This document shows positions 1 to 6,927 of a stretch of DNA of 7,757 nt, piece after piece. Position 1 is the first letter of the stretch, and each line of letters opens with the position of its first letter. The DNA is taken from the IMG/VR virus record IMGVR_UViG_2537562190_000025; one strand, written 5' to 3'. A program made the translations under genes and the position numbers. The DNA comes from a virus. Its lineage: Duplodnaviria; Heunggongvirae; Uroviricota; Caudoviricetes. The notes beneath the pieces are model-generated. The model was not told the origin of the DNA, made no database searches, and worked only from the letters and a program-made list of their open reading frames with translations.

Positions 1-888
1 ATGCCGCTGCTGGATAAGCTGCGTGAGCAGTACGGGGTCGGACCGGTATGCAGTGAACTGCATATTGCCCCGTCAACGTATTACCACTGTCAGCAACAGC
101 GACATCATCCGGATAAACGCAGTGCCCGTGCGCAGCACGATGACTGGCTGAAGAAAGAGATACAGCGCGTATACGATGAAAATCACCAGGTATACGGTGT
201 GCGTAAAGTCTGGCGTCAGTTGTTACGGGAAGGTATCAGAGTGGCCAGATGTACAGTGGCGCGCCTCATGGCAGTTATGGGACTTGCCGGTGTTCTCCGG
301 GGTAAAAAGGTCCGCACTACCGTCAGCCGGAAAGCCGTTGCCGCATGCGACCGCGTAAACCGTCAGTTCGTGGCAGAACGTCCAGACCAGTTGTGGGTGG
401 CTGATTTTACCTGGGTAAGCACATGGCAGGGCTTCGTTTATGTGGCGTTCATCATTGATGTGTTCGCCGGATACATCGTGGGATGGCAGGTCTCATCATC
501 CATGGAAACAACATTCGTGCTGGATGCACTGGAGCAGGCGTTGTGGGCCCGTCGGCCGTCCGGCACAGTCCATCACAGTGATAAAGGTTCTCAGTATGTA
601 TCACTGGCCTATACGGAGCGACTAAAAGAAGCAAAACTGCTGGCATCAACAGGGAGTACAGGTGACTCGTATGACAACGCGATGGCGGAGAGCATCAATG
701 GTCTTTACAAAGCGGAGGTAATACACCGTAAGAGCTGGAAAAACCGTGCAGAAGTGGAACTGGCCACACTCACGTGGGTGGACTGGTATAACAATCGACG
801 ATTGCTGGGAAGGCTGGGTCATATCCCTCCGGCAGAAGCAGAAAAAGCTTATTATGCTTCCATCAGAAACGATGATCTGGCAGCCTGA
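1..888 (+). CDS. IS3-family transposase OrfB (DDE/integrase-core domain), IS629/IS1203-like; 5-prime end and the upstream orfA lie outside the window
   Basis: 295-aa ORF open to position 1. Motifs typical of IS3-family OrfB catalytic core (WVADFTWV, HHSDKGSQY, DSYDNAMAESINGLYKAE). From memory the protein is near-identical to IS629 OrfB. Stop at 886-888. Confidence 0.9.
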   Translation: MPLLDKLREQYGVGPVCSELHIAPSTYYHCQQQRHHPDKRSARAQHDDWLKKEIQRVYDENHQVYGVRKVWRQLLREGIRVARCTVARLMAVMGLAGVLRGKKVRTTVSRKAVAACDRVNRQFVAERPDQLWVADFTWVSTWQGFVYVAFIIDVFAGYIVGWQVSSSMETTFVLDALEQALWARRPSGTVHHSDKGSQYVSLAYTERLKEAKLLASTGSTGDSYDNAMAESINGLYKAEVIHRKSWKNRAEVELATLTWVDWYNNRRLLGRLGHIPPAEAEKAYYASIRNDDLAA

Positions 889-2504: not shown

Positions 2505-3155
2505 TTACAAATTAAAAAACGCCCTAGAAATGACACCGCCTACCAAAACCCCTACGCAGATAAAGAATATTATTTCTTTTGGATAAAGTCGGATTAATTC
2601 TGAAGCACGAAGTCGGACTTCTGGTAAGGTCGAACTCTCTGTGTGGCTTGATGCCGATTGTTGCTCTAACCACGACAATGCAGACTGTAACTGAGAACGA
2701 GTAAGATCGTTTAAACGTCCTGTACCGAAATTGATATGGCAATACCGCAGAAGTTTTTGTCGAAGTCCACAGTCTTCACTGTTACGTAGTAATAAACTTA
2801 CAAGAGCCTTACAGGCATCATGATCTTTACATCGCTCAAGCATTGCATGCAGAAAACTCTCCGCTGTTTTATATTGATTTACTGTCATATCATCAATACC
2901 AGCTACACCAATCTCCGCATGTACTTTTTGCCAAATAATAAACGCTTCAGTATTGCTAGCTTCTGCAATAGCAGCAACCAAGCTATTTAGCTCCTTACGC
3001 TGAGCCTTAAGCAAAGGGCGATCGTCATCATCATTATTCGAAGGGATTGCGATATTGACAGTATGAGAACCATCATATCGCTCTATCTGAATATTCTTTT
3101 CGTGAAAATCACGCCCAGCAACGCGATTGTTTGAACCGTTTGAGTTGACGGCCAT
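2505..3155 (-). CDS. Hypothetical tail-anchored membrane protein (soluble ~190-aa N-terminal domain plus single C-terminal TM helix)
   Basis: 216 aa. Strong SD GGAGGTGAC before ATG. C-terminal hydrophobic stretch IIFFICVGVLVGGVISRAFF. N-terminal segment GSNNRVAGRDFHE repeats a motif found at the C-terminus of the upstream repressor. No recognisable catalytic motif. Confidence 0.75.
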   Translation of the reverse strand: MAVNSNGSNNRVAGRDFHEKNIQIERYDGSHTVNIAIPSNNDDDDRPLLKAQRKELNSLVAAIAEASNTEAFIIWQKVHAEIGVAGIDDMTVNQYKTAESFLHAMLERCKDHDACKALVSLLLRNSEDCGLRQKLLRYCHINFGTGRLNDLTRSQLQSALSWLEQQSASSHTESSTLPEVRLRASELIRLYPKEIIFFICVGVLVGGVISRAFFNL

Positions 3156-3575: not shown

Positions 3576-3650
3576 ACAAAAACCTTGATAGGTATCTTTT
3601 TTGATACCAAAATGATTTCACGAGCTATTAGATGATCACAATATACCACT
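3576..3650. promoter_or_regulatory. Divergent promoter/operator region between repressor and rightward operon
   Basis: 75-bp AT-rich intergenic region. Palindrome GGTATC-TTTTTT-GATACC (3591-3608) overlapped by two TTGATA hexamers (3585-3590 and 3601-3606) that resemble -35 elements. Confidence 0.5.
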
Positions 3651-3857
3651 ATGAAACAAGTTCTTCACGATACCAGATCACGCATTCCGCGTAACACCGC
3701 CACAGGTCCAAGACTGGCACTTCGGCTGTCCCTTGAGGAGCGAGCCGTCATTGATGAAATGGCAGCTAAAGAACAACGCTCATCCTCTAACATGGCGCGC
3801 ATGATCTTCCTTCGCGGCCTAGAGCTAACCCAGAAAGAACAAAACAAATCTTCCTGA
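3651..3857 (+). CDS. Small ribbon-helix-helix-like DNA-binding protein (CopG/Arc-like), first gene of the rightward operon
   Basis: 68 aa. Segment RLALRLSLEERAVIDEMAAKEQRSSSNMARMIFLRGLE fits the RHH beta-strand/helix pattern. No clear SD, so possibly leaderless or the start is misplaced. Overlapping minus-strand ORF 3665-3847 judged spurious. Confidence 0.5.
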   Translation: MKQVLHDTRSRIPRNTATGPRLALRLSLEERAVIDEMAAKEQRSSSNMARMIFLRGLELTQKEQNKSS

Positions 3858-3873
3858 TCAGGAGGCTAGTGGG

Positions 3874-4077
3874 ATGTCAGGTATAACCATCAATATCAAT
3901 GTGAATGCCCCCTATGTATCCCTGCAGAAATATGCAGAGATAACAGGTATCCCTCTTAATACGTGCAAAAAGATGTTGGCTGACGGTCGAATTATTATCC
4001 GCCCCAAACGCGCCAAAATGGAAAAGCCTGAAGTAAACCTTGTGGCGATGTTAAAAGACGCTTTGGCTAACAGCTAA
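3874..4077 (+). CDS. Cox/excisionase-like small HTH DNA-binding protein
   Basis: 67 aa. Strong SD (AGGAGG) upstream. Segment PYVSLQKYAEITGIPLNTCKKMLADGRIIIR resembles recalled P2 Cox (IPYQEFAKLIGKSTGAVRRMIDKGKLPVI). Position is the same as cox/apl in P2/186-type elements. Confidence 0.6.
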   Translation: MSGITININVNAPYVSLQKYAEITGIPLNTCKKMLADGRIIIRPKRAKMEKPEVNLVAMLKDALANS

Positions 4078-4098
4078 AACAATGAACAGAGCACCATC

Positions 4099-4449
4099 AT
4101 GAAAAAAAACGCTAATAATCCATACTCCAAATTTCGTAATGGCGTAGAACGCCATGTACACCACGTCGCTACCAGTGCATCACGTAGTAACAGTCGCTAT
4201 AACCTGAACGAGACGCACGCAACACCGGATGGCCACGCTGTAAAACAAATCGGCGAGCATGCCTGGCTGATTGAGAAAGCTGGAATCGTGGTCCACAAAT
4301 GCCCACGCAATCCGTTTACCGGAAACCGCATTTTTGCATTGAACTGCGGCGACAATCACTTCGGGCAGGATTTCACATTATACGAAGCACTTCGCACGGT
4401 TGATCGTCTGCTTCGCGGGCAAAGTTTTATTAAACAGGCTGATTTATAA
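4099..4449 (+). CDS. Hypothetical protein
   Basis: 116-aa ORF in operon context with coding-like composition; weak SD. No motif recognised. Confidence 0.55.
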   Translation: MKKNANNPYSKFRNGVERHVHHVATSASRSNSRYNLNETHATPDGHAVKQIGEHAWLIEKAGIVVHKCPRNPFTGNRIFALNCGDNHFGQDFTLYEALRTVDRLLRGQSFIKQADL

Positions 4450-4459
4450 CAGGTGCTTT

Positions 4460-4738
4460 ATGACCAAAGAGCATGCACAAGGTGTATTTATCCGTTTTAT
4501 TGATTTTCGCGGTGAACTGTTATTACGCGCATCAGCTATTGATGGAGTCGTCCCATCAGAAAAAAATGCAGCTACTTACGTTTATCTGAACGGCACGCGC
4601 CTGACCGTAGAACTTCCGTACCAGACTGTACACGAAATCATTAGCGAAGCTGAAAAGGCACGTCAGGTTAATGGCGATAAACCCTATATCGAAATTATCT
4701 GCATGGATTCAGAAGCTGAAATTCAGAAAGCAGATTAA
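4460..4738 (+). CDS. Hypothetical protein (start refined to the internal ATG at 4460)
   Basis: The track ORF 4400-4738 overlaps the preceding gene. The ATG at 4460 has an AGGTG SD 5 nt upstream and follows the upstream stop (4447-4449) by 10 nt. 92 aa. Confidence 0.6.
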   Translation: MTKEHAQGVFIRFIDFRGELLLRASAIDGVVPSEKNAATYVYLNGTRLTVELPYQTVHEIISEAEKARQVNGDKPYIEIICMDSEAEIQKAD

Positions 4739-4749
4739 AGGGTGTTGCA

Positions 4750-4992
4750 ATGGACAAAGAATATAAAACACTCATCAACAAAGCACTTGAGCGTTTTTAT
4801 TTTCGCTTAAGCGCATCAGGCGTTCATGCTGAACGTGCAGCCCGTGACTCATTGACCAGGGCAATCCGGAGTCTGTATGACGTGGCTTTTTACGCTGATG
4901 ATCTGGATGCACTTAACGAACTTTCCGAGCTGATCTGTGCCGCAGAATGCGGAGAACATATTGAACCGTATAAGCTGGGGAATATCGCATGA
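4750..4992 (+). CDS. Hypothetical protein
   Basis: 80 aa. SD AAGGGTG upstream. Stop overlaps the next start (ATGA at 4989-4992). Confidence 0.6.
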   Translation: MDKEYKTLINKALERFYFRLSASGVHAERAARDSLTRAIRSLYDVAFYADDLDALNELSELICAAECGEHIEPYKLGNIA

Positions 4993-5102
4993 GTATATTT
5001 ATCTCATGGCTTGTTCTGATTATTTCGGTGGCCTGCGCCATTGGGATTATGCGAATTATTAATTCAGTGAAAAAGATCGAGCGTTTTTTCTCTGATGAAT
5101 AA
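4989..5102 (+). CDS. Small hydrophobic peptide (37 aa, predicted single TM helix); not in the supplied ORF track
   Basis: Hand translation gives MSIFISWLVLIISVACAIGIMRIINSVKKIERFFSDE, stop TAA at 5100-5102. Start overlaps the upstream stop (ATGA), with GGGGAA SD-like sequence upstream. Confidence 0.4.
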   Translation: MSIFISWLVLIISVACAIGIMRIINSVKKIERFFSDE

Positions 5103-5195
5103 CGATACAAATAAAACATCAAATTAAATAAGAAAACGTGAAAACCATCCGTATTAACGGAGGTATTCGCACACGCAAATAACGGAGATACAAAA

Positions 5196-5606
5196 ATGCA
5201 CGCAAAAGAAGAAGGTATCATCAGAGCACTGAAAGAAATTTCAAAGATGGAAAGCGAAGTAGCGAAAAAAGCCGTGGCCAATGCTCACATGGACGTCGCA
5301 ACCCACACAATGATAGTCGCAAAAGTCACGGCAGAGGCTGCCAAAATCATCGAAGAACAGGGTGTGGAACTTGCGCTTCTCAAAACTAAACCAGTCACCG
5401 GACTGGATTTATCTGACACCGGACGCCTTATTTACACTATTGGCTCGGAGCCACAGCGATACACCATTATCGCCGGATTACAGAACAAATACCTGATCAC
5501 TCCTCACCCCATAAGGGAATCAACGCTTCTGACAAATCTCCGCCTGATAGAGCGCTCTCAAGTTGCATTCATTGATGACGCCCGACACACCGTATTTAAC
5601 GCATAG
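5196..5606 (+). CDS. Hypothetical protein
   Basis: 136 aa. SD ACGGAG 9 nt upstream. Preceded by an AT-rich 93-bp spacer (possible internal promoter) containing a TAACGGAG(G/A)TA direct repeat. Confidence 0.6.
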   Translation: MHAKEEGIIRALKEISKMESEVAKKAVANAHMDVATHTMIVAKVTAEAAKIIEEQGVELALLKTKPVTGLDLSDTGRLIYTIGSEPQRYTIIAGLQNKYLITPHPIRESTLLTNLRLIERSQVAFIDDARHTVFNA

Positions 5607-5629: not shown

Positions 5630-5833
5630 ATGGCAATTAAGCATTTTCCCGTCGTTCGCTTTACCTCCAGAGGGCGCGAATACGAGGTCGACGAACGCCT
5701 GATTACCACTATCGACAAACATCGTTCGGAAAAGGATGCACACCACATCTACCTCACTGACGGTACTTACTTCTGCGCCACCAACGTGGCGCGGGTGAAT
5801 CTTATCCGACAGGTACAGGAGCCACGCAGATGA
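5630..5833 (+). CDS. Hypothetical small protein
   Basis: 67 aa. SD AAGGGGGTG upstream. Stop overlaps the start of the next gene (ATGA). Confidence 0.55.
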   Translation: MAIKHFPVVRFTSRGREYEVDERLITTIDKHRSEKDAHHIYLTDGTYFCATNVARVNLIRQVQEPRR

Positions 5834-6392: not shown

Positions 6393-6714
6393 GAAACCAG
6401 AACATGCACACACAAAAAAACCGCTTGCCATGCCGCAATCAGTCAGGTTACATTTCCGCTGCACCTCATAAAACGGGTGCCGGGATTCTCAACCCGATAC
6501 AGAGCAAAGCGCATAACCGCGCCAGCGGTTTTTTTGTGCGTACTGTATTGCCACGTCTTTTTCGCGTCAGAATTATGGCGGGGCGTACGGGGCCGACTTC
6601 GGTCGGGCCGGATTCTTTGCTCTCCGGTGTTGAGAACCCTGTACGTCTCGCCACCCCGAGATTCTCAACTCTGGATGGTGAGCTATTTCTATCACCGAGC
6701 AAAGAGGCCACACC
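6393..6714 (+). other. Structured GC-rich non-coding island inside the rightward operon (candidate ncRNA / regulatory leader)
   Basis: No convincing coding frame. Contains the terminator-like hairpin (6515-6535), a stable UUCG-type tetraloop hairpin GGCCGAC-TTCG-GTCGGGCC (6591-6609), and three copies of GATTCTCAAC / GTTGAGAA (6485-6494 direct, 6629-6636 inverted, 6661-6670 direct). Confidence 0.35.
6515..6535 (+). terminator. Candidate intrinsic terminator (short GC stem plus T7 run)
   Basis: AACCGC-GCCA-GCGGTT followed by TTTTT (T-run 6529-6535). Stem is only ~6 bp, so weak to moderate. Confidence 0.4.
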
Positions 6715-6927
6715 ATGGCAAACCGCAAACAACAGCGCGCATACGCTGCGCGTCGTCACATCCAGACTGAAATCAACCGTAGACTTTTCCGCGCATCACG
6801 CGTCGCGCAAATCATGCACATCAATATGCTGCATGAGCGCAGCCACGCGCTATCGAACATCTATTCCGCCTCTGTTTTCAGCTATCTGGCGGATGATCTG
6901 CGCGAGCTGCAACAACTCTTCCAGTAG
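6715..6927 (+). CDS. Hypothetical small basic protein
   Basis: 70 aa. SD AAGAGG 8 nt upstream. Balanced helical-looking composition, unlike the overlapping 205-aa ORF in another frame. Confidence 0.55.
   Translation: MANRKQQRAYAARRHIQTEINRRLFRASRVAQIMHINMLHERSHALSNIYSASVFSYLADDLRELQQLFQ

Follow-up and report, generated by a model that had tools for sequence, protein, structure and literature searches.

The stretch of DNA analysed here (the window; 7,757 nt, IMG/VR virus record IMGVR_UViG_2537562190_000025) is a P88-like (Xuanwuvirus, P2 family) prophage of Escherichia coli, and its rightward operon contains a small gene, at 4989..5102 on the + strand, that encodes a hydrophobic peptide of 37 residues. 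We are highly confident that this is a real protein-coding gene maintained by selection, and its product is very probably a helix in the inner membrane. Together with the DUF4754 gene directly upstream, the small gene forms an invariant two-gene cassette. Taken as a whole, the picture of a real gene, an inner-membrane helix, a DUF4754 cassette, and packing of the helix against a partner is one that we consider reasonably likely; the partner-binding mechanism specifically, judged from patterns of residue conservation, is a tentative proposal that we would not call probable. The gene is of an ordinary kind, encoding a small membrane protein of a phage. What is added here is the evidence for selection, the conserved core of the peptide (the transmembrane (TM) helix, W7, A17, and R22), its obligatory pairing with DUF4754, and its range of subfamilies. 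The argument draws on the following features of the window.

4750..4992, + strand: 80-aa DUF4754 gene (PF15946, phrog_2549; Pfam E=4.9e-54), sequence GCATGAGT
4975..4981, + strand: Shine-Dalgarno (SD)-like CTGGGGA, 7 nt before the small-gene ATG, within the DUF4754 coding sequence
4989..4992, + strand: ATGA start/stop overlap, a translational coupling signal (small-gene ATG 4989-4991, DUF4754 TGA 4990-4992)
4989..5102, + strand: small gene, 37 codons plus TAA, product MSIFISWLVLIISVACAIGIMRIINSVKKIERFFSDE
4995..5051, + strand: predicted TM helix, codons 3-21, IFISWLVLIISVACAIGIM (hydropathy, AlphaFold2)
5052..5099, + strand: codons 22-37, basic next to the membrane (R22, K28, K29, R32) and acidic and variable at the end, read from the sequence
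5070..5089, + strand: an A5 run (5070-5074) and a T6 run (5084-5089) in the tail codons, where natural frameshift alleles arise

A 37-aa open reading frame (ORF) at 4989-5102 had been proposed from the letters of the window in a first-pass annotation. It is present, and MSIFISWLVLIISVACAIGIMRIINSVKKIERFFSDE is the exact translation of 4989..5102 (+). The window contains 96 ORFs of at least 30 aa, so a length of 37 codons is by itself unremarkable and it is conservation that exceeds chance. To guard against bias, loci were gathered through the neighbouring DUF4754 gene and not through the peptide; they came from IMG/VR, from a set with one genome per species, and from records with annotation. 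The small ORF is intact in 93 of 93 distinct DUF4754-anchored contexts. An ATG and an ATGA overlap are present in 91 of these; one context has a GTG start (GTGA), and another (L134), mis-parsed by the script, proved intact on inspection. The ORF has 37 codons in 86 contexts, 30 in three, 45 in three (by slips in the A5/T6 runs), and 50 in one (Salmonella), and the non-37-codon contexts, the Salmonella version aside, differ solely after codon 28.

The substitution pattern points the same way. Parsimony on a neighbour-joining tree of 49 distinct 114-nt haplotypes places 58 synonymous and 51 non-synonymous changes on 24.3 and 86.7 sites, respectively, resulting in a ratio of non-synonymous to synonymous rates (omega) of ~0.25 in the small-ORF frame (binomial p=1e-12, which is approximate because recombination inflates parsimony counts, while the contrast between frames is unaffected). 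In the other two forward frames of the same haplotypes, omega is 0.97 and 1.01, and pairwise Nei-Gojobori estimates are 0.27 in the small-ORF frame versus 1.28 and 1.03 in the others. Conservation of the frame and its synonymous pattern had been set beforehand as a refutation test for the gene, which passed it on both counts (the 93 intact contexts and the low omega). For comparison, the pairwise ratio of non-synonymous to synonymous differences (pN/pS) across the same loci is 0.28 for the peptide versus 0.20 for DUF4754. The haplotypes also bear on an ORF of 122 aa on the opposite strand (4913..5281, -), which might be the real gene, with the 37-aa ORF as its shadow. It is long, open in the window, and has an apparent omega of 0.31, a value explained by its third codon positions coinciding with those of the small ORF. 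Against it, stop codons interrupt this ORF in 34 of the 49 haplotypes, none of the records examined annotates it, and it would cross two rightward genes and the spacer behind the small gene. We therefore rejected it as a shadow ORF, and the chance that it is the real gene is negligible.

The first-pass annotation had also described translational coupling to the upstream gene, and the ATGA overlap lies where it was said to lie. The SD-like CTGGGGA forms a duplex of -5.5 kcal/mol with the 16S anti-SD sequence, at least as stable as that of most neighbouring operon genes (-2.1 to -6.6). Several other gene pairs in the operon are likewise ATGA-overlapped, as is typical of a co-translated early operon. 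Two further candidate features around the start codon were rejected. The first is a start-codon hairpin (CAUGAG...CUCAUG): the start region does not fold more stably than shuffled sequences (z=-1.0), and the hairpin has no covariation support. The second is a programmed -1 frameshift joining DUF4754 to the peptide. The small ORF does lie in the -1 frame relative to DUF4754, but only five codons are open upstream of its ATG and there is no conserved slip feature: a GGGAAAT heptamer precedes the ATG in 15 of the first 85 loci, most have GGGGAAT, and other subfamilies have unrelated sequence. In the longer DUF4754-peptide 'fusion' proteins of databases the read-through is in the other frame (+1), which suggests frameshift errors or mutants.

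The pairing with DUF4754 extends to distant relatives. phmmer, run exhaustively against 1.84 billion cluster representatives, found only seven clusters (50% identity representatives), and the members of this narrow family come from Escherichia, Shigella, and a few Salmonella. Two of its subfamilies have 41 aa: P0164 (MSVFLSWVILIISVLMAIGIMRIIEALKNIESLFTGEERRK), which is very abundant in E. coli, and P0163. Further diverged forms have 59 aa (P0165) and 50 aa; the latter, a Salmonella version (MNCGIPVSVCFSWTVFALSIIAAIAIVRLWRAISKPDK...), was found independently through synteny. Every diverged form directly follows an 80-aa DUF4754-like gene with the ATGA overlap kept (L138, L142-L146, and the Salmonella locus L086), and all keep the TM helix and the position of the gene. 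An SD-like motif stands at the same distance in three of four diverged forms (GAGGAG, GAGGTGG, and AGGAGG in L138, L142, and L146), and the DUF4754 C-terminal residues encoded by these bases differ between subfamilies. In most between-subfamily comparisons the small-ORF frame has the lowest dN/dS (non-synonymous over synonymous divergence). Amino acid identity between subfamilies is 28-46% for DUF4754 and 42-64% for the first 33 residues of the peptide; relative to the window it is 28-41% and 52-64% (over 33 residues), respectively. Salmonella DUF4754 and the Salmonella peptide, used as queries, had no match in IMG/VR or the phage collection.

In every locus examined, the small gene adjoins DUF4754, and the cassette changes place as one piece: phrog_3800 separates DUF4754 from DUF4761 in the window, whereas in L142-L145 DUF4754 and the peptide gene come directly after DUF4761. 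The AlphaFold2 model of DUF4754 is a helical hairpin (helices 2-48 and 52-66) with a predicted local distance difference test score (pLDDT) of 88.6. Foldseek found no match to this model in the PDB at E<=0.001, the only hits being designed helical bundles and ferritin fragments, all at E>1. Two side observations concern the loci themselves. Compared with window 4800-4950, locus L135 (IMGVR_UViG_2547132274_000005) has a mosaic break inside DUF4754: the central 150 nt of that gene are only 30-50% identical, while identity is 82-94% at both gene ends, in the small gene, and in the spacer. At the protein level, DUF4754 of L135 (its middle replaced) is 45% identical and the peptide is identical at 32 of 37 residues, which indicates recombination within the cassette that spared the peptide. 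Furthermore, a 226-kb contig labelled 'Vagococcus sp. WN89Y' (L084, NZ_JBQPOM010000071.1) contains an Escherichia prophage module at 98% protein identity; assembly contamination or mislabelling is the most likely explanation for its label.

Besides the frame, the peptide itself has features that suggest how it may be placed. Residues 3-21 have a mean Kyte-Doolittle hydropathy of 2.68 over 19 residues and a summed Hessa-scale free energy of about -2.9 kcal/mol, and a single-sequence AlphaFold2 model of the peptide is one continuous helix (residues 2-36, pLDDT 93). All charges (R22, K28, K29, E31, R32, D36, and E37) are C-terminal to the hydrophobic stretch, which by the positive-inside rule predicts an N-out/C-in topology with a cytoplasmic tail and a two-residue N-terminus in the periplasm. 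A lipoprotein or Sec signal peptide was considered and rejected: no basic residue stands ahead of the hydrophobic core, there is no conserved lipobox ([LVI][ASTVI][GAS]C) or AXA site, and the sole cysteine, C16, stands behind S-V-A, with M, A, or S in its place in relatives.

Conservation within the helix is uneven. W7 and A17 are invariant across subfamilies, and S6, I20, R22, and I24 are nearly so; R22 is kept in all six subfamily representatives and is Q in allele P0123. The stripe S6/W7, L10, S13, A17, I20, and I24 follows an i, i+3/4, i+7 spacing, includes small residues, and extends three residues beyond the TM helix. The conservation moment at 100 degrees per residue lies above that of 96.5% of permutations (p=0.035). 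A location of the conserved residues on one helical face is thus suggestive, not strong, and such confinement would point to helix-helix packing in the membrane. The last nine residues behave differently, with tail variants SDE, TGE, TEE, TDE, and TDK and with alleles of 30 aa (...SVKKD), 34 aa, 45 aa (...KKIERFSL...), and 50 aa that are common in E. coli and always keep residues 1-28. Clusters of the 45-aa allele contain as many as 63 sequences, and 388 contigs carry the 34-aa allele; at the level of substitutions, omega in the tail is still low (0.20). A single TM helix with a charged C-terminal tail had been described from the sequence, and both parts are predicted here. The tail end that this description emphasised is, however, the least fixed part: as the last nine residues are variable and tolerate truncation, the conserved core consists of the TM helix and the first basic residues behind it (R22...K28).

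Past the small gene lies a 93-nt spacer in which we observed a hairpin or palindrome, CC-A-UCCGU-AUUA-ACGGA-GG (5145-5163, +), 43-61 nt behind the stop codon. No subfamily, Salmonella included, departs from its core TCCGY-N4-RCGGAGG, while the surrounding spacer and the downstream gene differ; the hairpin contains one compensatory pair change (U-A to C-G) and has no match in Rfam. It has no U-tract and so is not an intrinsic terminator; it may act as RNA (in processing, stability, or antitermination) or as a DNA operator. It raises the alternative that the peptide is irrelevant, the small ORF being a leader or upstream ORF, or a nucleic-acid element, whose translation or RNA/DNA structure controls the variable downstream genes via the hairpin. 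Such a role would fit an ORF whose nucleotide identity is locally high, with more divergent sequence on either side and reduced synonymous diversity (pS) in its TM codons, and a hairpin that follows the stop at that distance in every subfamily ahead of variable gene content. On the other hand, constraint is specific to the frame (omega ~0.25 versus ~1 in other frames), and the TM helix, W7, A17, and R22 are retained at 55-72% nucleotide identity. In addition, the fold of the start region is not above shuffles, and the ORF of L146 reads through the hairpin, so that the distance from stop to hairpin is not kept. We consider this explanation very improbable.

What the peptide might do depends on when it is made. 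The 1.3 kb around the small ORF recur at 100% identity in the prophages of many E. coli chromosomes and are 86-94% identical to the P88 group of Peduoviridae (Xuanwuvirus, vB_EcoM-569R5, and Citrobacter phage PhiSM). Leftward, the gene order is integrase, two cargo genes, and a helix-turn-helix (HTH) repressor; rightward, it is a DNA-binding protein, DUF4761, phrog_3800, DUF4754, the small ORF, phrog_9338, several small genes, the isrK/C4 RNAs, and gene A. The rightward genes make up an early lytic operon of P2-like type, comparable to those of P2 and 186. This agrees with the phage early operon recognised in the first-pass annotation, the small gene being located between the Cox-side regulators and replication gene A. 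Its transcription may start from a single candidate site.

3585..3613, + strand: candidate early promoter TTGATA-17-CAAAAT, between the divergent repressor gene and the rightward operon

This is the only sigma-70-like site on the + strand upstream of the small gene, none being found at 3613-4989, and its position corresponds to that of Pe in P2 and pR in 186. It is identified by consensus match only, and the region has no more such sites than shuffles do.

In the mechanism that we propose, the small gene would be transcribed within this repressor-controlled early rightward (lytic) operon, its time of expression being inferred from that position. It would be translated by ribosomes that terminate on DUF4754 at the ATGA, by ribosomes that load at its own SD-like GGGGA, or by both. 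The product would be a single alpha-helix of 37 residues, of which residues ~3-21 span the inner membrane and the R22/K28/K29/R32 segment is cytoplasmic. Its conserved face may pack against another TM helix, either of a host inner-membrane protein or of the peptide itself as an oligomer. The peptide might also act as a membrane tether or partner of DUF4754, bringing or holding it at the membrane. The outcome would be an altered host envelope process early in lytic growth, an accessory host-takeover function. A bolder version is that DUF4754 and the peptide are an unrecognised two-component early host-takeover module of P88-like phages, in which the peptide docks on an essential inner-membrane machine (for example the divisome, the cell-wall/lipid II machinery, or FtsH/YidC) and DUF4754 acts from the cytoplasmic side. 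Such a module would fill the role of the soluble Fil/Dhr in phage 186; we regard it as a rather unlikely idea.

A different outcome, which the first-pass annotation had raised alongside host takeover, would follow if the peptide were a membrane-damaging toxin that oligomerises and depolarises or permeabilises the inner membrane like type I toxins (Hok, Ldr, TisB, Fst, and ZorO), either shutting down host metabolism or killing cells with a derepressed early operon. Type I toxins borne by prophages exist (review PMC12648545). The small-residue stripe S6/S13/A17 could equally serve self-association. In size and architecture, with an N-terminal TM helix and a short charged tail, the peptide resembles toxins of the Fst/Ldr type. 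The searches and the setting speak against this outcome: Pfam, NCBIfam, and PADLOC contain no toxin-family match even at E<=1, and the gene lacks its own transcription unit, overlapping the preceding gene by 4 nt in a polycistronic operon. No Rfam antisense RNA was found at 4700-5400 (E<=1), although an uncatalogued small RNA is possible, and promoter-like sites on the minus strand (5073-5046 and 5244-5217) are within chance expectation (three found versus 4.4 expected). P2-like phages carry a late lysis cassette, and early depolarisation would be counter-productive for a phage that has yet to replicate and has this cassette of its own. We therefore consider a membrane-damaging toxin unlikely, and autonomous action as the toxin of a toxin-antitoxin pair is not thought likely either.

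The operon setting also bears on superinfection exclusion, in which an inner-membrane peptide would block DNA entry of a secondary phage, like T4 Imm or HK97 gp15. The predicted location in the inner membrane and the phage origin of the gene would suit this role, as would its wide and apparently non-essential occurrence in E. coli prophages. However, known exclusion genes are usually expressed from the prophage by their own promoter, whereas the small gene sits in a repressed operon and has no promoter signal of its own; there is no PADLOC match and no similarity to known Sie, Imm, or Cor proteins. Exclusion appears improbable, less so than a leader role and more so than a toxin.

Returning to the helix that packs against a partner as part of a DUF4754 cassette, several points weigh against it. 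The signal for one helical face (p=0.035) comes from six sequences only. In the TM codons pS is 0.10, below the 0.24 of DUF4754, so that conservation could partly be at the nucleotide level or reflect recent recombination. The frequent frameshift alleles in the tail indicate either that part of the protein is dispensable or that the gene is weakly needed. The peptide and DUF4754 are not diverging in step, a weak argument against an intimate, specific complex, and as ATGA overlaps are common in the operon, coupling is not specific to this pair. The literature contained no ribosome profiling or proteomics showing translation of the peptide, and no partner, phenotype, or homologue of known function turned up in the family, PDB, and phmmer searches.

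These searches can be summarised briefly. Against Pfam (E<=1), PHROG, NCBIfam, and PADLOC the peptide gave nothing significant; its best family matches were phrog_18432 and phrog_5620 (E=0.3-0.5) and two generic TM matches (E=0.16), and no PDB sequence matched at E<=10. The gene had been noted as unannotated, which is true only of the ORF track used for that first reading: public records do call it. RefSeq/PGAP has it as WP_000021659.1 'hypothetical protein' on DNA 100% identical to the window, phage P88 as gp07 (YP_009113050.1) 'membrane protein', vB_EcoM-569R5 as 'putative membrane protein', and UniRef (A0A0F3SAN6) as 'Prophage membrane protein'. The exact peptide sequence is present on at least 1000 contigs, and a 136-nt probe was positive in 1295 of 5426 complete E. 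coli genomes (~24%); a 'hypothetical protein' feature lies on the ORF in 29 of 30 sampled probe rows, i.e. in all rows that cover the ORF. In the literature search, no paper was found with the peptide sequence, the WP accession, or 'DUF4754', and the P88 and PhiSM papers do not discuss the small gene. About one in four complete E. coli genomes, among them those of O157:H7, O103, O121, and ST131 strains, thus carries a gene that has neither a family model nor a paper. Phage PhiSM carries the small gene and grows on E. coli K-12 (PMC6456863), which makes PhiSM on K-12 a tractable experimental system for it. Should a host membrane machine be its target, the peptide would provide a probe or inhibitor of phage origin; without a measurable effect, it would be one more accessory microprotein. 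Either outcome leaves current concepts unchanged.

The remainder of the window contains further features of the prophage.

1-72: ALIL frameshift pseudoknot match (Rfam, 60.4 bits)
2128-2475, - strand: 115-aa DUF2511 cargo protein with an N-terminal signal-like sequence
2505-3155, - strand: 216-aa cargo protein with a C-terminal hydrophobic segment
5196-5606, + strand: 136-aa gene, phrog_9338, no Pfam match, in a variable slot after the spacer
6461-6535, + strand: isrK (Rfam, 62.8 bits, above the gathering score)
6571-6658, + strand: C4 antisense RNA (Rfam, 78.5 bits, above the gathering score)

The slot behind the spacer is occupied by unrelated genes in other loci. The phrog_9338 gene is present in the Salmonella locus and missing from P88 and several relatives, where a 67-aa gene (window 5630-5833) directly follows the spacer. 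Between the small early genes and gene A, the isrK and C4 RNAs are followed by a 70-codon ORF (6715-6927). A similarly placed gene of 72-75 aa in related loci, which may correspond to the 70-codon ORF, has a weak match to Pfam 'Derepression'. This region looks like a P1/P7-type C4-controlled antirepressor or derepression module in a P2-like prophage. Near the start of the rightward operon, a 45-aa leftward ORF of RefSeq (WP_001673482.1, 3665-3802, -) is overlapped by a 68-aa rightward ORF (3651-3857, +; MKQVLHDTRSRIPRN...), the latter in the position expected for a Cro/Cox-like first early gene. The two cargo genes lie between integrase and repressor, neither has a PADLOC match, and both are candidates for lysogenic conversion or defence. 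At the integrase end, the prophage abuts the 3' part of an IS3-family transposase ORF (window 1-888, +); an otherwise identical prophage, of strain 2011C-4251, has yecA/tyrP there, so the copy in the window has an insertion sequence (IS) at the attachment-site side.

How does the small gene compare with known systems? Judged by sequence homology, it belongs only to the P88 gp07/WP_000021659 family, which is the same gene: P88 gp07 is a 92% identical protein in the same position after DUF4754. The names in these records are automatic, with no experiment, family model, or paper behind them. In kind, it is like bacterial microproteins such as AcrZ, MgtS, MgrB, PmrR, KdpF, CydX, and those of the YohP type, which have up to 50 residues and about one TM helix and, in the cases where their action is known, pack on a larger membrane protein. 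The one-sided conservation of the helix fits such single-pass regulators. The small gene differs from them in that it has no sequence similarity, is phage-encoded and coupled to DUF4754, and belongs to a lytic early operon instead of a stress regulon. As for how so short a helix could reach the membrane, a published study (PMC7549839) describes the 27-aa YohP and similar small membrane proteins as recognised by the signal recognition particle (SRP) and inserted post-translationally.

Type I toxins (Hok/Gef, Ldr, TisB, Fst, and ZorO) are likewise ~30-50 aa, with a hydrophobic helix and a charged tail, and some are found in prophages; the peptide, which is small, hydrophobic, and predicted to cross the membrane once, is like them in this respect. 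At the level of the locus it is unlike them, as an antisense RNA was not found and there is no separate promoter and no long, structured 5' untranslated region, and the Pfam models for Hok/Gef, Ldr, TisB, Ibs, ShoB, and Fst do not match the peptide at E<=1. Holins and pinholins are located in the late lysis cassette beside an endolysin or spanin, usually have at least 60 aa, and have a dual start or two to three TM helices. The early operon position of the small gene, its 37 aa, and its one TM helix exclude it from this class, and the peptide has no holin match in Pfam or PHROG.

In operon position and size, the small gene also resembles the small, non-essential genes at the start of early lytic operons, such as Fil (a cell-division inhibitor) and Dhr of phage 186, lambda Kil, and T7 Gp0.4. 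Kil and Gp0.4 are soluble proteins. In 186, Fil and Dhr are encoded at the corresponding place in the early operon, directly ahead of an internal spacer or terminator. By sequence, none of 186 Fil (75 aa), 186 Dhr (66 aa), and P2 Orf78 (56 aa) resembles the peptide or contains a TM helix. Kil and Gp0.4 block cell division through FtsZ (PMC11323111).

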